64,000 nt of DNA from the NCBI GenBank assembly GCA_030041545.1, contig JASHNQ010000049.1:32374-96373 (forward strand). Reading direction: 5' to 3'. This stretch comes from a candidate division FCPU426 bacterium (lineage in GTDB: Bacteria > Oederibacteriota > Muellerivitia > Muellerivitales > Muellerivitaceae). The notes beneath the pieces are model-generated. The model was not told where the DNA came from. It searched no databases and worked only from the letters and a program-made list of their open reading frames with translations. This document shows, in pieces, positions 16,440 to 62,443 of this stretch. The number at the start of each line of letters is the position of its first letter. The first letter of the stretch is position 1. The translations under genes were made by a program, and so were the position numbers.

Positions 16440-16920
16440 AAGCGGCAATTCTAGCCGAGGTATCCCCGGTTTTTGAGAATCTCAAAAAAGGGGGCTTAGC
16501 GGAGACCCAGGCACCGCAAGGTTTTTGAGAGTCTCAAAAAATGGGTTTTGACAGAGACTGGGGCACCCCCACAGTTTTTGAGACTCTCAAAAAATGGGCC
16601 TTAGTAGAGGCCGGGGCATCCCCTGGTTTTTGAGACTCTCAAAAAAAGAGTTTTGATAGAGACGGGGACACCCCACAGTTTTAGAGAATCTCTAAAACTG
16701 GGTTTTGATAGAGGCCCGGGTACCCCATGGTTTTTTGAGAATCTCAAAAAATGGGCCTTAGTAGAGGCCCGGGCACCCCCCGGTTTTTGAGACTCTCAAA
16801 AAAAGAGTTTTGATAGAGACAGGGACACCCCACAGTTTTAGAGAATCTCTAAAACTGGCTCTTGGTGAAGGCCAGGGCACCCCTCGGTTTTAGAGAATCT
16901 CAAATTCGGGGTATCCCCCA
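16440..16920. repeat. Tandem array of about 9 palindromic 21-bp units (TTTTGAGAnTCTCAAAA core; variant TTTTAGAGAATCTCTAAAA) spaced at 51-53 bp with related 31-bp linkers; higher-order ~157-bp unit duplicated
   Basis: Seen directly: cores at about 16469, 16521, 16574, 16626, 16677, 16730, 16783, 16835, 16886; linkers alternate between TGGGCCTTAGTAGAGGCCCGGGCACCCC-like and GAGTTTTGATAGAGACRGGGACACCCCACA-like; lies in the 660-bp gap between cysA and cysD. Confidence 0.85.
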
Positions 16921-16975: not shown

Positions 16976-18022
16976 TTACGGTTGTATTGGAAACACGTGG
17001 AAAGCCGTGATGGCGGCGTAAACCTCCTGGCCTTCCTTGAAGCCGCTGGCCAGGGCCACCCCCTTGGGGACTTGGGCGGAGATTGTTTTGTCTTCCCCGA
17101 TATCCAGCTTGTATTCGATCACCGTACCCCTAAAACGGGTCTTGGCGATCTTGGCCCTCACCTGCAGGGTCTCAAACTGGGCGGTGACGTAAACGTCGTT
17201 GGGGCGGAAGTAAATACGGATTTTCTGGTTCACCGGCAGGCCAGGGTTTACGGAAAAGCGGAAAGGGCCCCACACGGCCAATCCCTTTTCCGATATTTCG
17301 GTGTCGATGTAGTTGGTCTCGCCCACGAATTGGGCGATGAAATGGGTGGCGGGCTCATCGAAAATCTCGATGGGTGTGCCGTCCTGTTCGATCTCCCCGT
17401 GGTTCATGATGAGGATGCGGCTGGCCACTTCCATGGCCTCTTGCTGGTCATGGGTGACGAAAAGAGTGGTCATATTGGTCTCCTCATGGAGCCTCAAGAT
17501 CCACTCCCGCAGTTCCTCCCTCACCTTGGCGTCCAGGGCTCCGAAAGGCTCGTCCAAGAGCAAAACCTCGGGCCGGGGGGCCAGGGCCCTCGCCACGGCC
17601 ACCCGCTGGCGCTGGCCACCGGAGAGCTGGGAAGGATAGCGTTTTTCGTACCCGGTGAGCTGGATCAGGTCCAAAAGCTCGAAAACCCTGTTCCGGACTT
17701 CATCCTCCTTTTGTTTGCGAACCCGCAAGCCGAAGGCGATGTTCTCGAACACGGTCATGTGCTTGAAAAGGGCATAGTGCTGGAACACGAAGCCCACGTT
17801 GCGTTCCTTGGCCGAGGCATAGGTGGCTTCCCGTCCGGTCAGGTGGATCTCCCCTGAATCCGGCACCTCGAGGCCCGCGATCATCCGAAGCAGGGTGCTC
17901 TTCCCCGACCCCGAAGGGCCTAAAAGCGCGGTCAGGGAACCCGTCTCCAGCTTCGCGCTCACGTTATGGACGGCCTTGAAGCCGTTGTAATGCTTGGTCA
18001 GGCCCCGCACTTCGATGCTCAT
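16976..18022 (-). CDS. cysA: Sulfate/thiosulfate ABC transporter ATP-binding protein
   Basis: 348-aa ORF; Walker [10 protein letters not shown], signature [10 protein letters not shown], Walker B LLLDEPF; C-terminal TOBE-like domain. Confidence 0.9.
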
Positions 18023-18927
18023 GGGAGCTCGCTTTCAAAGCGCGGCGGCAGGACCTGGCGCTCTTTTTCGTACTTCAAGCCTACTAGCGTTTTGGCGATC
18101 AGGGTGAGGACGGCCAAAAAGGTCAAAAGGGAGGCCACGGCGAAAGCCGCCGTAAAGTCATAGTCGTTATAAAGAATTTCTACATGTAAGGGCAGCGTAT
18201 TGGTCAAACCCCGGATATGCCCCGAAACCACGGACACCGCCCCGAATTCCCCCATGGCCCTGGCGTTGCACAGGATGACCCCGTAAAGCAGGCCCCATTG
18301 GATGTTGGGCAGGGTCACCCTCCAGAAAATCTGCCAGCCATTGGCGCCTAAAACCATCGCCGCCTCTTCCTCTTCCGAACCTTGTTCTTGCATGAGGGGG
18401 ATAAGTTCCCGGGAAATGAAGGGGAAGGTCACGAAAATCGTGGCCAGCACGATCCCTGGAAGGGCGAAGATGATGTGCAGGTTGTGGGCCTGTAGCCAGG
18501 GTCCCAGCAACCCCTGCAGGCCAAACAGGAGGACGTAAACGAGGCCCGAAACCACCGGCGAGACCGTGAAAGGAAGGTCGATAAGGGTAATCAAAAGGTT
18601 TTTGCCCGGAAAACTAAATTTAGTAATAGCCCAAGCGGACACTATCCCAAAAGCCGAATTGAACCACACGGAAAAGAATGCCGCGATAAGGGTTAGTTTG
18701 ACGGCCGAAAGGGCGTCCGGCTCGCGGATCGCTCCAAAATAATAAGAGAACCCCTTATTCAACGCGGAAGTGAAAACCTCCGCCAGGGGCACCAGCAGGA
18801 ATAAGGCGATAAAAAGCAGGGCCACGGTAATGAGGATCCAACGGACCCACCGGGTTTCGGTCAAAGCGCGGGCCGGATCGGTTTTCCGGTCCCCTTTTAC
18901 GCTCACAATGAGTGTTTCTTGGGTCAC
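18019..18927 (-). CDS. cysW: Sulfate ABC transporter permease
   Basis: 302-aa ORF, six-TM ABC permease with EAA-like loop (…[22 protein letters not shown]…); 4-nt overlap with cysA. Confidence 0.85.
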
Positions 18928-18936
18928 GTGGTTTCC

Positions 18937-19767
18937 TTAATGGATCCGGTGCAAACCTGTCCGCGATTGCAACCAGTTGATGGTCAAAAGCAGGGTGAAG
19001 GAAATCGCCAGCATAACCACCCCGATCGAGGTGGCCCCGGCGTAATCGTATTGCTCCAGCTTGGTGATGATCAAAAGGGGAGTGATTTCGGTTTTCATGG
19101 GCATGTTGCCGGCGATGAAGACCACCGACCCGTATTCCCCCACTCCCCGGGCAAAAGCCAGGGAAAAACCCGTTATCCAAGCCGGGACCAGGGTGGGAAG
19201 AATAACCCTGGTAACGGTATACCAACGGTTGGCGCCCAAGCTGACCGCCGCCTTTTCCGTTTCCAAGTCCAAGGACTCAAGGACGGGTTGGAGTGTGCGA
19301 ACGACAAAAGGCAGGCCGATGAAGGTCAAAGCCACGACAACGCCCAGGGGAGTGTAAGCCACGGAAATCCCCAAAGGCTGGAGGCATTTCCCAATCCATC
19401 CATTTGGGGCGTAAATTGCCGTCAGGGTGATTCCCGCCACGGCCGTGGGCAGGGCAAAGGGTAAATCCACCATCGCGTCCACCAGTTTTCGGCCCGGGAA
19501 TTCATAACGGACGAGGACCCAGGCCACCACTGCCCCGAAGATGGAATTGATGATAGCTCCCACAAGGGAGGCCCCGAAGGTCAGCCGATAAGAGGCTAAA
19601 ACGCGGGGGCTGGTGACTTCCTGGACAAACTGGGCCCAGGTGAGGGTGACGGATTTCAGGATGAGGGCGGCCAAGGGGATGAGGACGATCAAGCCCAAGT
19701 AAGTCAGCGTAAAACCCATGGTCAGACCAAAACCCGGCAAAACGCCGGGAGAATTCCTAATTTTCAT
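18937..19767 (-). CDS. cysT: Sulfate ABC transporter permease
   Basis: ORF 18937..19785; permease motif …EKAAVSLGANRWYTVTRVILP…; start taken at internal Met adjacent to upstream HPr stop. Confidence 0.85.
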   Translation of the reverse strand: MKIRNSPGVLPGFGLTMGFTLTYLGLIVLIPLAALILKSVTLTWAQFVQEVTSPRVLASYRLTFGASLVGAIINSIFGAVVAWVLVRYEFPGRKLVDAMVDLPFALPTAVAGITLTAIYAPNGWIGKCLQPLGISVAYTPLGVVVALTFIGLPFVVRTLQPVLESLDLETEKAAVSLGANRWYTVTRVILPTLVPAWITGFSLAFARGVGEYGSVVFIAGNMPMKTEITPLLIITKLEQYDYAGATSIGVVMLAISFTLLLTINWLQSRTGLHRIH

Positions 19768-20036
19768 TTTTCGCTTTTTCCCCATCCCCTCAATAATTCA
19801 CTGATAGCCCGAATGGCCTCGGAAGCATCATCTCCATCGGCCGAAAACTCCAGTACCGTACCATAAATGGCTCCCAGCGTTAATAGTTCCAAAAGGCTCT
19901 TGGCATTCACGGGTAAACCGCCGTTGGAAACCAGGATACGGCTTTTAAACCGGCTGGCGGTCCTCACCAATTCCGCCCCGGCCCTCAAGTGCATGCCCAA
20001 CCGGTGGAGAATTGGAATTTTTTCAATGTTCTTCAT
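19764..20036 (-). CDS. HPr-family phosphocarrier-like protein (89 aa) embedded in the sulfate-transporter operon
   Basis: Translation MKNIEKIPILHRLGMHLRAGAELVRTASRFKSRILVSNGGLPVNAKSLLELLTLGAIYGTVLEFSADGDDASEAIRAISELL aligns along its length with PTS HPr (active-site His in G-x-H-x-R-A, conserved Ser in AKSLL). Confidence 0.75.
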   Translation of the reverse strand: MKNIEKIPILHRLGMHLRAGAELVRTASRFKSRILVSNGGLPVNAKSLLELLTLGAIYGTVLEFSADGDDASEAIRAISELLRGWGKSEK

Positions 20037-20149
20037 GGGATCTCCTTGGACCCCGCAAAAGGGTTTCTGAAATGCAGGGTGGATATCCATGGGCCCCTTA
20101 AGTTTGGAAAAAAACGGACTACGGAGAAAGCCTTTTCCCCGCGTCCTCT

Positions 20150-21169
20150 TTATTTTGATCCCGGCTGGTAAATCCGGTCGAAAACGCCGCCGTCTCCGAA
20201 AAAAGCGGACTGGGCCTTTTTCCAGCCTCCAAAAACCTTATCGATGGTGAAAAGCTTGATCTTGGGAAATTGTTGGGCGTACCGGGCCGCCACTTTCTTG
20301 TCCCGTGGCCGGTAATAGTTGCGGGCCGCAACATCCTGGCCTTCGGGTGAATAGAGGTATTCCAGGTAGGCCTTGGCCACTTCGGCGGTGCCGTGCTTTT
20401 CGGTGTTCTCGTCCACCCAGGCGACCGCGGGTTCGGCCAGGATACTGGTGGAAGGCGCCACGATTTCGAAGTTCCCCTGCCCAAGTTCCCCAATAGCCAG
20501 GTGCGCCTCATTCTCCCAAGCGATCAAAACGTCCCCGATTCCCCGTTCGACGAAGGTGGTGGTGGAACCCCGGGCTCCCGAGTCCAGGACCGCCACGTTC
20601 TTGTAGAGCTTGGCGACGAACTCGCGGGCCTTGTCCTCACTGCCGTACTTCCTTAAGGCATAGCCCCAAGCCGCCAGGAAGTTCCACCGGGCCCCACCGG
20701 AGGTTTTAGGATTGGGGGTGATGACCGACACGTCCGGCCGCGCCAAGTCATCCCAATCCTTGATATGCTTGGGGTTGCCCCTCCGGACCAAAAAAACGAT
20801 GGTGGAAGTATAAGGAGCACTGTTGTCGGGCAGCCTTTTCTGCCAATCCGCCGGCAGCAGTTGGGCCTTGGAAGCGATGGCGTCGATATCCCCGGCCAGG
20901 CCCAGGGTCGCCACGTCGGCCTCCAACCCATCAATGATGGCCCGGGCCTGCTTGCCCGAGCCGCCATTGGAGACGTTGACAACCACGTCCTGGCCCATCT
21001 TTTGCTTCCAGTAGTCGGCGAAAACCTTGTCGTAATCCTGGTAAAGCTCCCTCGTCGGGTCATAAGACACGTTTAAAAGGCTGACTGGGCCAGCGCCCTG
21101 GTTTTGGGCCAGGGCGCTTCCGGCGACAGCAAGAAAAAGGGTGATGGCTATTTGCTTAAACAGTTTCAT
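20150..21169 (-). CDS. sbp: Sulfate-binding periplasmic protein
   Basis: 339-aa ORF with signal peptide ([21 protein letters not shown]) and Sbp/CysP family body (…[13 protein letters not shown]…[19 protein letters not shown]…). Confidence 0.9.
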
Positions 21170-21193
21170 GGCAAACTCCTCTTTTAAACCGAT

Positions 21194-22690
21194 TTAGAAG
21201 TTCGCTTGGGCCCGGACGGTAAAAACGTCCTCCGGCAAAAGGCTGGTGAGCGCTTTGGTTCCGGGAACCTGGAGCCCTTCCACGAAATTCGTCTGTTCGA
21301 AGTCGAAGACCAGCTTGAAGTGGGGGTTGAAAATCCAGTTCAAGCCGGCGCCGTAAGCCGTCGCCTGTTGGGCTGAGTTGGTGGCGGCCAGGTTGGTGGC
21401 GGCCGATGCGCTGAAGCTGTTGGGGTCCAGTGTCAGTTGGTGGACGCGGACCGCCACTTCCAGGGCGCCCCATTGGCCCTTGCGCAGGTCCAGGTCCTTA
21501 TCCGCGACAGCCCCAAGAAAAGAGGCCTTTCCGCCGATGACCCAGGATGCCGCCAGCTGCCAGGCCCGGTGGGTCAAGGCAACGGCATCGGCCTTGCTGA
21601 AGCCCACGTCCTGGATCGACTGGACGTATTCGCCCAGTAACCCGAAGGGGCCGTTGGAAAAATAACCCTGGGGGGACCAATGGTAAAAATCCCCCTGGGG
21701 TGAAACGCCCGTGCGGTAGGCGAAAAACTGCTGCTGGCCCAGGGAAGTGACGAAATAATTGGGATAGGCGTTGGAGTTCCAATTCACGTTCCAGGCCCAG
21801 GAACCCGATAGGCCGAACCCCAAGCCTTTTAGGAAGGAGTCCTCCGAATCGAAGGGGGTTAAATAAACCCGCCCCGTGGACTCCCGGCCGTTGGTCAGGG
21901 ATTGGTCGGCGGCGTTGTTGGGCGTCAAGTTATCCGGCGTGCCGTTGGTCAGGGCCACGGAATAATTGACCCCGTTCCAAGGGCTGCCCGTGGCTTCCAC
22001 GCCCAAATCGCGGTTGGGCACCAGGTCGGTTGGCAAGGCCCTTTCCACGAAAAGATTGTCCGTATCGTTTTGCAGCCTTTCCAAGCCCACCGGCACCTTG
22101 AACTTACCCGCTTGGAACTGCAAGGCCGGGTCGGCCTTGATGAAGGCATAGGCGTCCTGGATGGCATAGCCCGTGGATCCCAATTCGGCCTGGTAACGGA
22201 ATCCCACCAAGTGGTCGAAAAGGGCGATGAGGTCCAGCCTGGTTTTACGGTTCAAAAAAGTGCTGGCGGACTTGTTGGTGGTGGCCCCGGAAGCCCCCAA
22301 TTCCGGTTCAGCGGTGCTGCCAATGGGCACATAATCGTAATAAGATGAATTGGGTTGGAAATAATCCCGGTAATCTTCCTGGACCACCCCACCGATCTTG
22401 AGAACCACATCCCCTTGGGAATCGGACAGGTCCACGTAGTTGTGCTCAACACTCAAAACCACGGCCTGCTTTTCCAACAAGGCAAGGTGGTTATTGAGCC
22501 CTTCCAACCCCGCGACGGGCGTTACGGTGGGAGTAGCCGACTCGTCATTGCCGCCCGAAGGCGCCGTGGCGGCCGTGGGCGTGGAGGCGTTTGGGCCACC
22601 GGTCGAATTATCCGCCCAAACTCCCGTCGACCCAAGGATTACAGCCCCAACCGAAACGGCTAAAGCAAATACCGACTTTCTTTTTTCCAT
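21194..22690 (-). CDS. Outer-membrane beta-barrel porin, probably anion-selective (OprO/OprP-like family)
   Basis: 498-aa ORF with signal peptide, alternating amphipathic beta-strands, C-terminal …RAQANF (terminal Phe); located at head of sulfate-uptake gene block. Confidence 0.6.
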   Translation of the reverse strand: MEKRKSVFALAVSVGAVILGSTGVWADNSTGGPNASTPTAATAPSGGNDESATPTVTPVAGLEGLNNHLALLEKQAVVLSVEHNYVDLSDSQGDVVLKIGGVVQEDYRDYFQPNSSYYDYVPIGSTAEPELGASGATTNKSASTFLNRKTRLDLIALFDHLVGFRYQAELGSTGYAIQDAYAFIKADPALQFQAGKFKVPVGLERLQNDTDNLFVERALPTDLVPNRDLGVEATGSPWNGVNYSVALTNGTPDNLTPNNAADQSLTNGRESTGRVYLTPFDSEDSFLKGLGFGLSGSWAWNVNWNSNAYPNYFVTSLGQQQFFAYRTGVSPQGDFYHWSPQGYFSNGPFGLLGEYVQSIQDVGFSKADAVALTHRAWQLAASWVIGGKASFLGAVADKDLDLRKGQWGALEVAVRVHQLTLDPNSFSASAATNLAATNSAQQATAYGAGLNWIFNPHFKLVFDFEQTNFVEGLQVPGTKALTSLLPEDVFTVRAQANF

Positions 22691-22805
22691 GACAAACCCC
22701 TTTTAAAGTTTTTTTCCCTGTTTTTATCGCGGAGGATGCCGCTCGGGGTCTTACGGATTCCCAGACCCCGCCTTCCAGCGGGTTGGGATTCAAAAAATCC
22801 GAAGA

Positions 22806-22880
22806 CCGCTTTAGCGCCCTGTTTGGTCTCTTTCGAAACACCGGTCGGGGCAAGTTGGCAATTAAATCCCACCGTAAAAC
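22806..22880 (-). ncRNA. Copy A of a triplicated conserved intergenic element (boxes CCGCTTTAGCgCcCTGTT … CCGGgGCAAGTTG on + strand), about 120-190 nt upstream of porin start
   Basis: Seen directly; shares two conserved boxes separated by a variable hairpin with copies at 23812 and 24049. Confidence 0.45.
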
Positions 22881-23042
22881 TTTTAAACTTCGAACCCTTC
22901 AATCACCTCCCTAATCAAAATCCAACCCACATCCAGCGCAAAGCCGCCAAGACGCCAAGAAAGTCAAAATTTTCTGTTTCAAGGCCGAAGCTTTTCTTGG
23001 AGCCTTTGCATCTTCGCGCTGGCTTTGGGTTAGCCGTTTTTT

Positions 23043-23711
23043 TTAATTCGAAAGCACCCTTTCCTTCGCCTGGCCCTTGTTCGGCTGTGGCGTCAAACGA
23101 AGGTAAGGCCGCAGGGTCTTATAACCCTTGGGGAACCGTTCCTTCAGTTCCTTCTCGTCCTTCACGGCCGGCACGATGACCACGTCGTCCCCGTCCTTCC
23201 AGTTCACCGGGGTGGCCACTTTGTGGTTGTCCGTCAATTGCAAAGAATCGATCACCCGGAGAATTTCGTTGAAATTCCGACCCGTGCTGGCCGGGTAAGT
23301 GATGGTGGCCCGCACCTTTTTCTCCGGGTCGATGATGAAGACCGACCGGACCGTGGCGTTGGCCAGGGAATTGGGATGGATGAGGTCGTACAGCAACGAG
23401 ACCTTGTAGTCATGGTCCGCCAAGATGGGGAAATTCACCCGGGTTCCCTGGGTTTCGTTGATGTCCGGTATCCAACCCTTATGGTTCTCGACCGTGTCCA
23501 CGGAAAGGGCGATGACCTTTGCTCCCCTTTTCTCGAACTCAGGCTTCAACCTGGCGGTTTCGCCCAGTTCGGTGGTGCAGACAGGCGTGAAGTCCGCCGG
23601 ATGGGAAAACAAGACCACCCAGTTCTTTCCAGCCCATTCGTAGAATTGGATCCTGCCCTCGCTGGAATCCTGCGTGAAATCGGGCGCTACGTCTCCTAGT
23701 CTAAGTGCCAT
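23043..23711 (-). CDS. 1-Cys peroxiredoxin (Prx6 type)
   Basis: 222-aa ORF; …FTPVCTTELG… peroxidatic Cys motif, AhpC/TSA fold plus C-terminal 1-Cys Prx domain; RBS aggagg 7 nt before ATG. Confidence 0.9.
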   Translation of the reverse strand: MALRLGDVAPDFTQDSSEGRIQFYEWAGKNWVVLFSHPADFTPVCTTELGETARLKPEFEKRGAKVIALSVDTVENHKGWIPDINETQGTRVNFPILADHDYKVSLLYDLIHPNSLANATVRSVFIIDPEKKVRATITYPASTGRNFNEILRVIDSLQLTDNHKVATPVNWKDGDDVVIVPAVKDEKELKERFPKGYKTLRPYLRLTPQPNKGQAKERVLSN

Positions 23712-23746
23712 GACATGCCTCCTAAATTTTTTTAGAGGCGGTCCTT

Positions 23747-23789
23747 AAAACGAAAAACCCGGGACCGCTTCTGAAGGCGGCTCGGGTTT
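23747..23789 (-). terminator. Intrinsic terminator on minus strand between conserved element copy B and prx RBS
   Basis: Minus strand reads CCCGAGCCGC-cttcagaa-GCGGTCCCGGG followed by TTTTTCGTTTT; only about 35 nt before the prx RBS, i.e. leader-attenuator geometry. Confidence 0.5.
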
Positions 23790-23811
23790 CCTGGATTTCC
23801 GGAAAGCAGGC

Positions 23812-23895
23812 GCCGCTTTAGCTCCCTGTTCATTAATTTCCTAGGGAGAAGCTCCCTGGAAACCAATCCGGCCGGGGCAAGTTGACGAAAACCCT
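23812..23895 (-). ncRNA. Copy B of conserved intergenic element, in prx 5' leader
   Basis: CCGCTTTAGCtCcCTGTT-[cattaatttcctagggagaagctccctgg hairpin]-CCGGCCGGGGCAAGTTG; followed on minus strand by terminator 23747-23789. Confidence 0.5.
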
Positions 23896-23983
23896 TGTTT
23901 TTCAAGGTTTTCCGGGGTCCTTTTGGAACCCGCATTAAAGCCTCACCGGGGCGTTTTTGGTCAAAAACGCCTAAAACCGCCTG

Positions 23984-24024
23984 AAAACAAAAAACCCAGG
24001 CCGCTTTTAAAGCGGTCTGGGTTT
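23984..24024 (-). terminator. Intrinsic terminator on minus strand directly after conserved element copy C
   Basis: Minus strand: CCCAGACCGC-tttaaaa-GCGGCCTGGG followed by TTTTTTGTTTTC. Confidence 0.55.
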
Positions 24025-24048
24025 AGGAGCTTTCCCTTAAACTTTTAC

Positions 24049-24113
24049 CGCTTTAGCTCGCTGTTCGATTCCTTTAGGAATCACGCCGGAGCAAGTTGGA
24101 ACTTAAAGCCCGC
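24049..24113 (-). ncRNA. Copy C of conserved intergenic element, about 40 nt downstream of the CPBP gene stop
   Basis: CCGCTTTAGCtCgCTGTT-[cgattcctttaggaatc hairpin]-CGCCGGAGCAAGTTG. Confidence 0.5.
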
Positions 24114-24151
24114 GTTATGTGAAAGAATACTATCCAAACTGTCCGTTGTTG

Positions 24152-24973
24152 TCAATGGATTCTTTTCCGTTTCCAAAAAACCGCAATTCCAATGGCCCAA
24201 AACCAACAAAAAAACACCCTGAACAATTCCACACGGTTGCCGTGGGCGGCGACGGTTCCCACCAGGTTGATGCTGAAATGAAACAGGATGGCCGAAAGAA
24301 TGCTTCGGCGCGCGAGGTCGTAAATCCAGGTCATGACAACGGAAACGGGAAGGATGCCGGCAAAGAACAGGAAAAACCCAACCGTCCCTACGCCCAAGGT
24401 GGATTGGTAAGCACCCTTGAGAAAAAACAAGGGAAGGTGCCAGAGCCCCCACATCAACCCAAGGATCAAGCTGGCCCTCAGTGAACCGTGCCTGGCCCGC
24501 AAGCGGTCTAAGGCGTAGCCCCGCCAACCTAGTTCTTCGGGAACGGGCCCGAACAGGAACATGAAAACCAAGAAGACAGGAAGGGCCAGGGATTGGGGAA
24601 GAAACCCCTCGAAATAATGGATCGTGGTCAAATCGAGTTGAATGCCCCTGCCACCGATGAGGATGTCCACCCGACCCGCCAGCCAAGTCAAAAGCGGGAC
24701 CGCTAGGAGGGACAACTCCCAGCCCCGGAAATCCAGGCGTTTCCAATCCATGACTCTTCGCCAATAATCCCGTCGAACCTCATCTCCGCCTTCCCGGTAG
24801 GTGAAATAGATGCCGAAAACCATAGGGCCGATGCCGCCCAGGGCAAAACCCAGCTGGGTGATAAAATGCGTGGCATCCGGGCCCCAAAGGGCGGTTGGAA
24901 CCCAAAAGGCCCAGCTCCAAGCAAAAGTCAGGGTGAAGAAAAGCCAAGGGGAGGCCGCTGTCGTTTTTTTCAT
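24152..24973 (-). CDS. CPBP-family intramembrane metalloprotease (CAAX protease/Abi-like)
   Basis: 273-aa polytopic ORF with the three family motifs: PEELGWRGY (EExxxR), LWHLP (FxxxH), ILFHFSINL (HxxxN). Confidence 0.8.
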   Translation of the reverse strand: MKKTTAASPWLFFTLTFAWSWAFWVPTALWGPDATHFITQLGFALGGIGPMVFGIYFTYREGGDEVRRDYWRRVMDWKRLDFRGWELSLLAVPLLTWLAGRVDILIGGRGIQLDLTTIHYFEGFLPQSLALPVFLVFMFLFGPVPEELGWRGYALDRLRARHGSLRASLILGLMWGLWHLPLFFLKGAYQSTLGVGTVGFFLFFAGILPVSVVMTWIYDLARRSILSAILFHFSINLVGTVAAHGNRVELFRVFFCWFWAIGIAVFWKRKRIH

Positions 24974-38092: not shown

Positions 38093-39322
38093 TCAGGCCG
38101 GGACCAGTTGGGTGGCCTCAAAGGCGGCGAGGTTGGGCTGGATGACCTTCACTTCCCTCAAATGGCCTGTCACGGCTTCCTGGGTTTTCAGGCCCGTTCC
38201 GGTCACGTAAGCCACGGTCACGGCATCCGGATCCAAGGCTCCCGATCCGGCCAGCTTTTTCAGGCATCCGATGGTGACGCCGCCGGCGGTTTCCGCGAAT
38301 AGTCCTTCGGTGCGGGCCAACAGTTTGATGCCTTCCACGATTTCCTCGTCCGTGACCATCTCGGCCCCGCCCTTGGAATCGGCGATGGTCCTTAAGGCGT
38401 AAAAACCGTCGGCGGGATTGCCGATGGCCAAGGACTTGGCGATGGTATTGGGCTTGACCGGCCGGAAAGTGTCGGTCTTGGCTTTATAAGCGGTGGTCAC
38501 AGGCGAACAGCCGGCGGCCTGGGCGCCGAAAACTCTCATGGGCTTGTTTTCAATGAGGCCCACTTTGATGAACTCCTGGGTCCCCTTCCAAATCTTGGTC
38601 AAAAGGGACCCGGAAGCCACGGGGACAACGACTTGGTCCGGTGCTTTCCAGCCCAACTGCTCCGCCACTTCGAACCCGAGGGTTTTGGAGCCCTCGGCGT
38701 AATAGGGCCTCATATTAATGTTCACGAAGGCCCATTTATGCTTGCCGGCGATTTCGCTGCAAAGACGGTTGACGTCGTCATAATTGCCGTTGACCCCGAT
38801 GAGGTTCGGGTCGTAGATCAGCGAGGCCGTCACTTTGCTGGTTTCCAGGTTGGAGGGAATGAACACAAAGCGTTTCATGCCGCCCTTGGCCCCATAGGCC
38901 GAAACCGCGTTGGCTAGGTTGCCGGTCGAGGCGCAGGCTAAGGTATCGAAACCCAGTTCCAGGGCCCGGGTGGAGGCCACGGCCACCACGCGATCCTTGA
39001 AGGAATGGGTGGGGTTGGCGCAGTCGTTCTTCACGTAAAGTCGGGAAAGGCCCAATTCCTCGCCCAGCCGTTCGGCGCGGATCAAGGGCGTATAACCTTC
39101 CTCCAGGGTGTTGTAGCGGGTTCCCTCGACGGGCAGGAACTCCCGGTAGCGCCAGATATTCAGCGGGCGGGCAGCGATCTTTCCGCGGGAAACATCTGTC
39201 TTGATCTTGTCGTAATCATAGGCTGCTTCCAAGGGCCCAAAGCAGAACTCACAGACGTATTTGGCCGTTTTTTCGTATTCCTGGCCGCATTCCCTGCATT
39301 TCAAAGACTTTACGTAACCCAT
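38093..39322 (-). CDS. Threonine-synthase-family PLP enzyme with N-terminal zinc-ribbon (C-x2-C…C-x2-C); paralogue of thrC at 46505
   Basis: Start at MGYVKSLKCRECGQEYEKTAKYVCEFCFGPLEA; PLP-Lys motif …ANPTHSFKDRVVAVA…; 409 aa; RBS ggaaggg upstream. Confidence 0.8.
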   Translation of the reverse strand: MGYVKSLKCRECGQEYEKTAKYVCEFCFGPLEAAYDYDKIKTDVSRGKIAARPLNIWRYREFLPVEGTRYNTLEEGYTPLIRAERLGEELGLSRLYVKNDCANPTHSFKDRVVAVASTRALELGFDTLACASTGNLANAVSAYGAKGGMKRFVFIPSNLETSKVTASLIYDPNLIGVNGNYDDVNRLCSEIAGKHKWAFVNINMRPYYAEGSKTLGFEVAEQLGWKAPDQVVVPVASGSLLTKIWKGTQEFIKVGLIENKPMRVFGAQAAGCSPVTTAYKAKTDTFRPVKPNTIAKSLAIGNPADGFYALRTIADSKGGAEMVTDEEIVEGIKLLARTEGLFAETAGGVTIGCLKKLAGSGALDPDAVTVAYVTGTGLKTQEAVTGHLREVKVIQPNLAAFEATQLVPA

Positions 39323-39652
39323 CGTTTTTCCCTTCCGCTCCCGGAAAAGGCCTCGGCTCAAAAAAAAAGGCCCCATCCTGAGATGGAAGCCTTTGAGGTT
39401 TGGATTTCCATCTCTCATCTTTCCCCGGATCGTCGTCCCTTTCCGGAGCAGGATTTGGCACCTGGCGACCCTTTTCGGTCCGGTTGCCGTGGCATCAACG
39501 GGCCTGTCCCTCCGCCACTCGCGATAAGAGCGTTTAATTGTTCAATGAATATTACTCAGTGCGCCTTTCCCTGTCAAGGCCACCGCCATAGCCGGTGGCG
39601 GGTGGCTGTTAGTGGATGGTAAAGGCTACCCGCCATCCGCTACAAGCTGCCA

Positions 39653-60855: not shown

Positions 60856-61982
60856 TGGCGCTGAAACACCTCCGAGACTTCAACCATAAACCCCTTGGCC
60901 AAATTCTGTTGGCCACCCTTCTCTTTTGTTTCGTCTTTCTTGCCCTTTTTACGGGTCTCTATAAGGCCGGAACCGTATACATTGTGAAAGAGCGTACCCG
61001 CCGGGCGGTGAACCTAACCGCCCTAACCGGGGGCGCCGTCTATGCCAATGGTCTCCAACTGGTAAGGGAGGCCAACGCGGCCATTATGGCTTTTGCTTAC
61101 TACGATGCAGCGATGGTGGCCAGAGCCATCAGCGAAGCCCTCCTAGCTCCTCCTCCCTTGGATATCGCCGCTGTGGCTTTGGCCGCGGAAAAAGCCGATC
61201 CGGACACCCGGAAGCCCGCCCAAGACATTGCCACCAAGATTTTCGGAGTGGGCACCCCTAAGGGGGTGGGCCTTTATCCGGCGTTAATTGAAGGGCAAGC
61301 CGTGGTGACAGCCGGCGAGAATTCCCTTTCAAAACTCCCGCCTTTTTATGTTTACAATTACGAAACCGCGGACGACGCGGACGTTGCCGTTCCCAACATG
61401 GCGTTACGTTTTCGTTACGCGGATGAATTCTTACCCAATGGTAACCAGGCGCCCTATTCCCTGGCCCACAACGGAGTCAGGCATTATTTCGAGGCCGACC
61501 AAGTGGAGCCCGCTAAAAACCCCCGTCACCCGGAACAAATGAGGGTCAAAAAATCTTTTGATTCGGAATTTGCTGGTTGGTGGGTCCGCCGGGAAAAAGG
61601 CGCCGAAGAAGGCAAGGGAGTAAATGGTCTGTCAAGCCACAATCCTTTTTCCGGAATTTCAAATATCGGCCTTTTAAAGAATTATTTGCGCCAATTCAAG
61701 CTGGACATCACCGACCGGGATGATCCCCCCTGTCACACCTTTTCGCTGCTTGGAAACATGAAAATGAAGCCCGAAGGCGAAGACAAGGCCATCTACGAAG
61801 TGGGTGAGGTCCGTGTGGAAAGCGACGGGATCGCCGCATGGAGTAAAAATCCTTTTGAAATTTACCTCACACGGGTCAATATCGATGCTTTTCCTGTTTT
61901 GCGGGATTCGCTCAGAAAACTCCGAGGCATCCCGTTTATCGGCGACATTCTTAAAAGTTCGGACATATTGAACGGAATATGA
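60855..61982 (+). CDS. Hypothetical membrane-anchored protein of the Tad locus (375 aa), possibly TadG-like
   Basis: N-terminal TM (…ILLATLLFCFVFLALFTGL…); overlaps neighbours by 1-4 nt. Confidence 0.4.
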   Translation: MALKHLRDFNHKPLGQILLATLLFCFVFLALFTGLYKAGTVYIVKERTRRAVNLTALTGGAVYANGLQLVREANAAIMAFAYYDAAMVARAISEALLAPPPLDIAAVALAAEKADPDTRKPAQDIATKIFGVGTPKGVGLYPALIEGQAVVTAGENSLSKLPPFYVYNYETADDADVAVPNMALRFRYADEFLPNGNQAPYSLAHNGVRHYFEADQVEPAKNPRHPEQMRVKKSFDSEFAGWWVRREKGAEEGKGVNGLSSHNPFSGISNIGLLKNYLRQFKLDITDRDDPPCHTFSLLGNMKMKPEGEDKAIYEVGEVRVESDGIAAWSKNPFEIYLTRVNIDAFPVLRDSLRKLRGIPFIGDILKSSDILNGI

Positions 61983-62443
61983 ACCTAATCCTTTTCACAA
62001 ATAATAAGGGCCAGGCCTTAGCTGAAATGGTCTTGTCTATTCCCTTGCTGTTTTTACTTATAGCGGGGATAGCCCAATTCGCTGTCCTATTTTTGTGTTA
62101 TGTCCAATTCGAACACGCCTGTGGCGAGGCGGCCCGCCAATACACGGCTCGCATTGTCGAAAAAGACTCGCTTGGCCCCGCCATCACGGACAACCTTGGA
62201 TATCTTGGCCGGTATTTCGACTTGGCTTCTTTAAGCGTCAAAATCCAAGAGCCGGGTGGCACCGCGGATGAGGTTCTTGACAATGTCAGGAACGCCATCT
62301 CCTTAATCCCCTTTACAATAAATTATGACGGCGCCGAATGGGCGGTTGATATCAATGCCCGACCTCCCTTCTGCTTTAGGCCGCTGTTCCCCCACGGAAT
62401 TCCTTTCCATACCGTGCTACAGGTCTATCGGTATCCTCAGTGA
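61979..62443 (+). CDS. TadE/TadF-like pseudopilin
   Basis: …NNKGQALAEMVLSIPLLFLLIAGIAQFAVLF…. Confidence 0.6.
   Translation: MNLILFTNNKGQALAEMVLSIPLLFLLIAGIAQFAVLFLCYVQFEHACGEAARQYTARIVEKDSLGPAITDNLGYLGRYFDLASLSVKIQEPGGTADEVLDNVRNAISLIPFTINYDGAEWAVDINARPPFCFRPLFPHGIPFHTVLQVYRYPQ

Follow-up and report, generated by a model that had tools for sequence, protein, structure and literature searches.

A candidate riboswitch of the SAM-II/SAM-V fold upstream of sulfur-acquisition genes in the candidate phylum FCPU426

Introduction

What is the role of a short conserved element that is repeated around a 1-Cys peroxiredoxin gene (prx) and a porin gene? This question is raised by a stretch of 64,000 nucleotides (hereafter, the window) from a bacterium of FCPU426, a candidate phylum (candidate division FCPU426 bacterium; GenBank assembly GCA_030041545.1, contig JASHNQ010000049.1, positions 32,374 to 96,373 of the forward strand). 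A preliminary description of this DNA reported three copies of a pair of conserved boxes separated by a hairpin, and considered them as riboswitches or attenuators or, alternatively, as small RNA genes or arrayed operator sites. According to the analysis presented here, the copies are riboswitch aptamers of the SAM-II/SAM-V fold and, by analogy with known aptamers, would most likely be OFF switches that sense S-adenosylmethionine (SAM) and control a regulon of sulfur acquisition and of cysteine and methionine biosynthesis. We consider this interpretation probable.

Occurrence of the element

A scan of the window found exact matches to box2 (plus strand CCGCTTTAGCNCNCTGTT) at 22806, 23813 and 24048, and box1 (plus strand CCGGRGCAAGTTG) at 22845, 23872 and 24086, i.e., 25-45 nt from box2 in every copy. 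The three copies are thus real repeats, named A, B and C, and all are on the minus strand (Table 1). When up to three mismatches were allowed, box2 had five matches in the window for 0.47 expected by chance, a number reached in 0 of 100 shuffles. The partial box2 match at 62371, which lacks box1 and lies inside a plus-strand open reading frame (ORF; 61979-62443), was discarded as a chance fourth copy. The hairpin between the boxes differs in sequence and length from copy to copy. Besides, the element is longer than the two boxes, with a conserved 5' segment made of the first strand of a helix (P1a) and G(A)GGCUUUAA. Because this segment is part of the element, copy B, which carries two extra hairpins inserted in its loop, starts at 23949 and not at 23895, where it had been placed too late. 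With a covariance model (cmsearch), copies A and C scored 69.2 bits (E 4.8e-19) and 62.9 bits (E 3.6e-17), and copy B 36.3 bits over 23811-23903, with a separate weak match at 23916-23947 corresponding to P1a and the third strand described below. The plus-strand reading was rejected, as it offers no fitting genes or terminators and folds no better than shuffles. Since the structure is a pseudoknot, single-sequence minimum free energy folding gave no useful information (z-scores from -1.4 to +0.4).

In contigs identified through porin orthologues (57-80% identity), the element stands upstream of the porin and the prx genes, and it also precedes a DsrE-like gene, an ExbB-ExbD-TonB-receptor cluster and a small gene of unknown function. 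Absence from such orthologues, or placement at random, was looked for as the sign of a plain repeat and was not observed. An exact-pattern scan of 185,579 species genomes (one per species), in which CTAAAGCGG and the UUGC...CCG and AACAG letters were fixed, returned 64 loci, nearly all in metagenome-assembled genomes (MAGs) labelled candidate division FCPU426, Elusimicrobia/Elusimicrobiota or Candidatus Firestonebacteria. A relaxed scan of metagenome contigs, fixing CTAAAGCGG and CCAAMUUG and leaving the letters of the lower pseudoknot helix (P2) free, yielded at least 120 loci, many of them from peat and soil. The covariance model (R1) was built from 33 copies of the GAGG type only, because a MAFFT alignment of all types misaligned helix P1 in copies without A9; it gave 143 + 187 = 330 matches at E <= 0.001 in the two locus sets, from MAGs and from peat or soil metagenomes. 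Copy B of the window is nearly identical to a copy in an FCPU426 MAG (L047).

Fold and covariation

Read 5' to 3' on the minus strand, the aptamer would begin with one strand of a 4-bp helix P1, followed by a purine/U-rich third strand, G(A)GGCUUUAA, and a turn ending in CCAAC. The descending strand of P2 (UUGCCCCG) would then run straight into the other P1 strand, before the variable hairpin P3, two invariant adenines, the ascending P2 strand C(A)GGGnGC-U-AAA and the tail GCGG, whose GG would pair with the CC of the turn as helix P2a.

Covariation is directly observed in P1, in P2 and in the variable hairpin. P1 joins a segment upstream of box1 with the four nucleotides directly after it; it is 97% paired, and compensatory swaps occur at all four pairs (e.g., CG 73/AU 44/UA 5; GC 83/CG 46; CG 107/UA 17). 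The pseudoknot P2, between GCCCCG of box1 and C-A-GGG-n-GC of box2, is also 97% paired. The variable nucleotide n is bulged in the usual form; the bulge is shifted by two positions in 'type C', GCUCC/G(n)GAGC (37 sequences), and bulge-free complementary variants also exist, namely GCCUC/GAGGC (4 sequences), GCUCC/GGAGC (2) and GCACC/GGUGC (1). The closing pair G41:C171 is replaced by A-U (2), U-A (1) or C-G (2). This one-bulge register explains all variants, and the register initially considered, with C37 facing n176, was abandoned since only 47 of 132 cells pair in it. Covariation was found at all five modelled pairs of the variable hairpin, whose length ranges from about 10 to more than 45 nt across copies. 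Hence, the hairpin covaries while the boxes stay fixed, which was the outcome awaited from the covariance check suggested in the preliminary description. Over the whole model, 91% of cells pair, and the observed values were reached in 0 of 500 shuffles; sliding the partner by one column lowered pairing to 45-56%. Moreover, the descending strands of P2 and P1 are contiguous (GCCCCG-GCCG), as in the pseudoknot of the SAM-II/SAM-V superfamily.

The elements are therefore structured cis-acting leader RNAs and not DNA repeats. Dispersed repeats of the repetitive extragenic palindromic (REP) or miniature inverted-repeat transposable element (MITE) type, or arrayed operator sites for a DNA-binding regulator, could have been suspected from the presence of several copies within 1.3 kb and from conserved boxes around a variable spacer. 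Such repeats are expected at unrelated places, in both orientations and without gene association. Instead, base pairs are kept through two-sided changes while hairpin lengths vary, orientation is fixed with respect to the downstream genes, and the element is conserved upstream of orthologues in three candidate phyla. Compensatory base changes and consistent gene association exclude the repeat and operator readings, which we regard as extremely improbable. A sigma-54 promoter reading of box1 was also discarded, its spacing being wrong by eye.

Other parts of the aptamer hardly vary. The adenines that follow P3 are present in 141/141 (A169) and 140/141 (A170) sequences, and columns 13-15, 33-35 and 178-182 of the alignment (A4) are invariant or nearly so. 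P2a (C28C29:G186G185) is 99.6% paired but invariant, which is consistent with a helix without being proof of one; by eye, no consistent pairing extends it into the variable nucleotides. Copy B and its orthologues hold one or two extra hairpins in the turn, which put P1a and the third strand at least 60 nt upstream, and at some loci an insertion of more than 100 nt occupies the same position.

In the insertions of at least 100 nt between the third strand and CCAAC (L022:1860-2048; L033:4221-4420, minus strand; L060:1785-1990, minus strand; L065:3140-3343), a conserved CAGGYGGUGA pairs with UCACCCCCUGG, and a U-run comes after a conserved internal hairpin. These insertions may form a structured domain nested in the aptamer, or even provide a terminator within it.

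Expression platform

Taking a hairpin of at least -8 kcal/mol with a U-run after it as an intrinsic terminator, we found one in 202 of 229 distinct downstream regions, starting a median of 25 nt past the aptamer. In the window, the GC-rich hairpins and T-runs announced by the preliminary description on the minus strand after copies B and C are indeed there (Table 1), and no T-run lies downstream of copy A. The tetramer CCGC, the commonest G/C tetramer of the terminator 5' arms, occurs in 175 of the 202, and its complement GCGG in only 94 of the 202 3' arms. Given this imbalance, CCGC is kept for something beyond the terminator stem, with the invariant tail (AA)GCGG as its obvious partner. This is illustrated by copy C, whose terminator 5' arm ACCGCUUUA can pair instead with the tail UAAAGCGGU to give a 9-bp antiterminator (RNAfold), and by copy B, in which GCCGC of the terminator 5' arm can pair with GCGGC of the tail (5 bp). 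In both copies, RNAfold gives the antiterminator when the tail is free and the terminator when it is sequestered. A terminator and a mutually exclusive pairing with the 3' part of the aptamer, which together define a transcription-terminating riboswitch, are thus both observed, and the riboswitch geometry proposed earlier holds for cis-acting leader RNAs read on the minus strand.

In the ligand-free state, the tail AAAGCGG would pair with CCGC(UUU) of the terminator 5' arm, and the resulting antiterminator would allow read-through. In the ligand-bound state, the tail would be locked into the aptamer, the terminator would form and the genes would be turned off. For SAM-V, the ligand has been proposed to stabilise the triplex and P2a (PMC6061858); we infer an OFF switch here because a triplex and a P2a stabilised in this way would sequester the tail.

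The platform of copy A offers other alternatives in RNAfold. A long hairpin (22747-22807) takes the last two G of the aptamer tail and, just past it, CCCC (22745-22748) is a possible anti-Shine-Dalgarno sequence for the Shine-Dalgarno AAGGGG (22697-22702). The segment UCUUCG...GAAGACCCCGAGCGG is kept in orthologous copies. Copy A may possibly act by translational control of the porin.

A protein, or another RNA such as a tRNA, could bind the leader RNA and govern the same choice between terminator and antiterminator, since this logic is independent of what stabilises the aptamer, and the very high conservation of single-stranded-looking boxes would fit a protein site. We hold this explanation to be improbable: no candidate regulator gene travels with the element across the 204 distinct units compared, and neither T-box nor any other leader family matches (T-box RF00230 gave no Rfam match, and an element of about 70 nt is too short for a T-box leader). 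Nor would a protein site be expected to combine a compact pseudoknot and a variable hairpin with the position-for-position match to a ligand pocket described below.

Correspondence with the SAM-V core

The crystal structure 6FZ0 and the metY and bhmT sequences of the accompanying supplement (PMC6061858) served as the SAM-V reference. In SAM-V, a 4-bp P1 is followed by a third strand lying in the P2 major groove, a short turn, P2 running into P1, the P3 hairpin, adenines docking in the P1 minor groove and the ascending P2 strand; a short helix, P2a, joins the turn to nucleotides 3' of the aptamer (PMC6061858). The metY sequence reads AGGC GCAUUUG AAC UGUAUUGUAC GCCU ...AAA GUACUAAAAAA, and that of bhmT ...AACC...GCACUAAAAAGGA (PMC6061858). 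The third-strand contacts U8-U10 of SAM-V correspond to the invariant UUU of the new element, U19 U20 G21 of the descending P2 strand to the invariant UUG, C46 U47 A48 A49 A50 to the invariant C-U-A-A-A, and A41/A42, which dock in the P1 minor groove, to the invariant AA after the hairpin. Likewise, the GG of the bhmT P2a (CUAAAAAGG) corresponds to the GG found six nucleotides past the bulged U, with its partner CC in the turn. The element thus has the complete binding core, i.e., UUU, UUG and C-U-AAA with a U bulged between a G:C and a U:A pair, as well as the adenines following P3 and a putative P2a helix between the turn and the 3' tail.

In SAM-V, U47 pairs with the adenine of SAM, the U20:A48.U9 triple faces the sulfonium and A50 holds the amino-acid end (PMC6061858). 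By analogy with this crystal structure, SAM would bind in the P2 major-groove triplex of the new element. The bulged U, flanked by the G:C and U:A pairs, would then be the partner of the SAM adenine, the U:A.U triple would neighbour the sulfonium, and the third A would be in contact with the amino-acid end. The U-rich strand opposite A:U pairs that a major-groove triplex requires is present, and the triplex of the third strand on P2 is predicted from these letters. A Watson-Crick helix GCUUUA/UAAAGC had been considered at this place and rejected, as it is 92% paired but changes on its 5' side are never compensated; after comparison with SAM-V, the GCUUUA strand was reinterpreted as a putative Hoogsteen third strand.

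Rfam 15 at gathering scores gave no match to the element in the window or at ten other loci, and relaxing the threshold to E <= 10 brought none either, whether the query was 1.7 kb or just the 86-nt aptamer; the element is not a member of the Rfam families as modelled. The earlier remark that the motif was not recognised as any known RNA family therefore stands with respect to Rfam, but not with respect to the architecture and core nucleotides, which match those of SAM-II/SAM-V. Literature searches for an Elusimicrobia or a sulfate riboswitch found nothing, and the literature searched contained no description of the element.

Regulon and tandem arrangement

Within the sequence covered, a same-strand ORF lies just downstream of the element in 152 of the 204 units, and these ORFs fall into a few sulfur-related families: OprO/P-type porin (45 units), sulfate-binding protein Sbp (26), homocysteine synthase MetY followed by CysK and MetX (19), ExbB (17), CysT/W (16), CysA (15), 1-Cys peroxiredoxin (15), CysK (11) and DsrE-like proteins (10). 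TonB systems were also found downstream, along with smaller numbers of SsuA-type sulfonate-binding proteins, CysE and a FAD flavoprotein of the fumarate-reductase/APS-reductase superfamily. The element is thus sited upstream of methionine, cysteine and sulfur genes (MetY-CysK-MetX, CysE, Sbp-CysTWA and SsuA), as expected of a SAM riboswitch. The downstream genes form a sulfur regulon and not an oxidative-stress set, contrary to the link initially drawn from prx: their products take up sulfate and synthesise cysteine and homocysteine, and the peroxiredoxin belongs to this set.

A conserved protein of about 120 aa (12 units; 116-121 aa, e.g., L002 174-524), which matches no Pfam family, recurs as the product of the first gene downstream of the element and, for this reason, is a candidate new sulfur-metabolism protein.

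Tandem copies are frequent, with two or three copies in 79 of 167 units (47%), a median of 114 nt apart. Over all loci, a sigma-70-like promoter precedes 105 of 162 first copies and 1 of 94 later ones. In the window, a single leader holds two complete switches one after the other, copies C and B, so that the tandem arrangement proposed earlier proved to be a true pair behind a single promoter. This promoter (24127-24155) would drive switches C then B ahead of prx, and switch A, between prx and the porin-sbp-cysTWA operon, would probably act on translation. A perfect hairpin, GGCGUUUUUG-ACC-AAAAACGCC (23951-23972, minus strand), separates the copy C terminator from aptamer B and is kept in L036 and L047.

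These promoters and terminators would also suit small trans-acting RNA genes, above all in the case of copy C, which has its own promoter and terminator and would yield a discrete transcript of about 135 nt; terminated SAM riboswitch leaders do act in trans in Listeria. However, the copies are almost always directly upstream of a few sulfur genes and in the same orientation, later tandem copies are without promoters, and the alternative pairing with the terminator is conserved. A trans-acting role, which we judge very improbable as an explanation, could add to the cis role and not replace it.

The arrangement of C and B in series is the same as that of tandem SAM-II riboswitches, reviewed as pseudo-cooperative, and of SAM-II/SAM-V pairs, reviewed as 'bi-mechanism' (PMC9481103). 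Two or three copies in 47% of units is unusually high and would make this element a good system for studying pseudo-cooperative and mixed transcription/translation control.

Genomic context in the window

In this part of the window every gene is on the minus strand. A CPBP protease gene is followed by copies C and B, each with its terminator, then by prx, copy A and the genes for the OprO/P-type porin, Sbp, an HPr-like protein, CysT, CysW and CysA and, past a gap filled with repeats, CysD and CysN. The -35 hexamer of the prx leader promoter overlaps the stop codon of the CPBP gene. Coordinates are collected in Table 1.

Table 1. Positions, in the window, of the three aptamers, their expression platforms and the neighbouring genes
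Feature	Position	Strand	Details
Sigma-70-like promoter of prx leader	24127-24155	-	TTGACA 24150-24155; 17-nt spacer; TAGTAT 24127-24132
Aptamer C, first of tandem pair	24048-24115	-	cmsearch
C, P1a	24112-24115	-	ACGC
C, third strand	24103-24111	-	GGGCUUUAA
C, turn	24095-24102	-	GUUCCAAC
C, P2 descending	24087-24094	-	UUGCUCCG
C, P1b	24083-24086	-	GCGU
C, P3 hairpin	24067-24082	-	
C, adenines after P3	24064-24066	-	GAA
C, P2 ascending	24052-24063	-	CAGCGAGCUAAA
C, tail	24048-24051	-	GCGG
C, linker hairpin, aptamer to terminator	24021-24042	-	RNAfold; equivalents at other loci differ in sequence
C, intrinsic terminator	23984-24021	-	CCCAGACCGCUUU / AAAGCGGCCUGGG then U6
Aptamer B, second of tandem pair, long-loop form	23813-23949	-	cmsearch; orthologous long-loop copies
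B, P1a	23945-23949	-	CCGGU
B, third strand	23935-23944	-	GAGGCUUUAA
B, inserted hairpins	23913-23932; 23890-23909	-	
B, turn end	23881-23889	-	UUCGUCAAC
B, P2 descending	23873-23880	-	UUGCCCCG
B, P1b	23868-23872	-	GCCGG
B, P3 hairpin	23832-23867	-	
B, adenines after P3	23829-23831	-	GAA
B, P2 ascending	23817-23828	-	CAGGGAGCUAAA
B, tail	23813-23816	-	GCGG
B, linker hairpin	23786-23809	-	
B, intrinsic terminator	23747-23786	-	
1-Cys peroxiredoxin gene	23043-23723	-	Shine-Dalgarno AGGAGG 23718-23723; start codon 23711
Aptamer A, upstream of porin/sulfate-uptake operon	22806-22874	-	cmsearch
A, P1a	22871-22874	-	CGGU
A, third strand	22862-22870	-	GGGAUUUAA
A, turn	22854-22861	-	
A, P2 descending	22846-22853	-	
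A, P1b	22842-22845	-	ACCG
A, P3	22825-22841	-	
A, adenines after P3	22822-22824	-	AAA
A, P2 ascending	22810-22821	-	
A, tail	22806-22809	-	GCGG
A, expression platform	22697-22807	-	no T-run; RNAfold alternatives
Controlled operon porin-sbp-HPr-cysTWA	16976-22690	-	
OprO/P-type porin	21194-22690	-	
Sulfate-binding protein Sbp	20150-21169	-	
HPr-like protein	19764-20090	-	assigned via clustering with orthologue matching PF00381
CysT	18937-19785	-	
CysW	18019-18927	-	
CysA	16976-18022	-	

The prx product matches Pfam AhpC-TSA and 1-cysPrx_C and the NCBIfam peroxiredoxin entry. The gene for the HPr-like protein, of the phosphotransferase system type, is kept between sbp and cysT in relatives as well (L001 12614-12892, L002 12673-13026); such a protein is an unusual partner for a sulfate transporter. 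A 52-nt unit repeated about 8.4 times in a tandem array (75% matches; 16454-16904) fills the cysA-cysD gap, which measures only about 150 nt in the relatives L001 and L002. The repeat unit holds the palindrome TTTTGAGAnTCTCAAAA, and nine of the ten matches to this palindrome in the window fall in the array. A weak covariance-model match at 16450-16504 (plus strand) lies at one end of the array and is not an aptamer.

A SAM-I riboswitch (39412-39530, minus strand; 82.8 bits) was found upstream of the threonine synthase gene thrC (38093-39418), whose product has an N-terminal zinc-ribbon-like extension. Two elements of unlike structure, each a known or likely SAM sensor, thus coexist in the genome. 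The other loci, examined for SAM-I and the new element replacing each other upstream of one gene, contain no thrC orthologue.

Ligand and significance

Several observations weigh against the interpretation as SAM-sensing OFF switches. SAM is assigned as ligand by analogy only, and no copy was detected by RF00521, RF01826 or RF01726, which leaves homology with SAM-II and SAM-V without support from sequence statistics. The triplex and P2a have no covariation support, their core nucleotides being almost invariant, and in directly recruited copies the conservation of the core letters follows by construction from the scans, which fixed those letters; the extra copies recruited only by the model show the same core letters. 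The pocket itself may differ, as the equivalent of A18 (C32) is mostly C in the new element, A18 of SAM-V supporting the A that binds the amino-acid end of SAM (PMC6061858), and the two nucleotides after AAA are GC here and AA in SAM-V. Besides, the mechanism of copy A, which has no terminator, is a guess, no metK was seen among the downstream genes of the units, and the same genome has the SAM-I riboswitch mentioned above.

Part of these observations would fit a riboswitch of the same fold with a ligand other than SAM, such as S-adenosylhomocysteine (SAH), methylthioadenosine, adenosine phosphosulfate or its 3'-phosphorylated form (APS/PAPS), or an unrelated compound (cysteine, O-acetylserine). 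Indeed, the two pocket differences, the SAM-I riboswitch elsewhere and a regulon devoted mostly to sulfate uptake and cysteine/homocysteine synthesis, and not to SAM synthesis or recycling, all point in this direction. Against it, the SAM-contacting residues U47, A50, U8, U9/U20 and G21/A48 all have invariant equivalents at identical spacing, and MetY and MetX are classic SAM-II/SAM-V targets. S-box regulons in Firmicutes include sulfate assimilation genes too. We consider a ligand other than SAM unlikely. Still, another metabolite would be compatible with the altered pocket and with a regulon centred on sulfate, and a SAM-II/V fold re-tuned to a different indicator of sulfur status, e.g., APS/PAPS, SAH or a cysteine-pathway intermediate, is in our view unlikely as well, and slightly more so. 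If true, it would be the first riboswitch to report directly on sulfate assimilation and not on SAM.

The aptamer would add a third branch to the SAM-II/V superfamily, one that existing covariance models miss entirely and that, for this reason, current annotation lacks in three candidate phyla, all abundant in peat and soil. For bacteria not amenable to cultivation, it would define a complete sulfur regulon under RNA control, and membership of this regulon provides functional leads for its unexpected members, i.e., the OprO/P-type porin, TonB-ExbBD, the DsrE-like protein, the 1-Cys peroxiredoxin and the conserved protein of about 120 aa. The altered pocket positions would offer a natural test of binding-site drift in the SAM-II/V superfamily.

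Comparison with known riboswitch families

In Firmicutes, SAM-I (S-box) is a termination OFF switch placed on many sulfur-acquisition and cysteine and methionine biosynthesis operons. The new element shares this regulon logic only, the fold of SAM-I, a four-way junction, being unrelated.

SAM-II (RF00521) and its long-loop form (RF01726) are closer, with the binding-core architecture of SAM-V and a P2a made of C-G pairs. Most SAM-II riboswitches control transcription termination, as the new element usually does, and the long-loop variants tolerate insertions in the way copy B does (PMC2864571). Tandem SAM-II pairs are also known, with 44 examples (PMC9481103). By contrast, SAM-II has a P1 of at least 6 bp, a 4-bp P2 and no P3 (PMC6061858), whereas the new element has a 4-bp P1 and always a P3.

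SAM-V (RF01826, upstream of metY and bhmT of 'Candidatus Pelagibacter') resembles the new element in its H-type pseudoknot with the same order of parts, its association with metY and its occurrence in tandem with a second SAM switch. The two differ in the lower P2, which has 6 bp and one bulged variable nucleotide here and 4 bp in SAM-V, in the third strand, 3 nt longer here, and in the host phyla. Finally, the tail of the new element is AAAGCGG, with no Shine-Dalgarno sequence, and its control is usually by transcription termination, whereas SAM-V, whose tail AAAAAAGG is an A-rich Shine-Dalgarno region, acts on translation.

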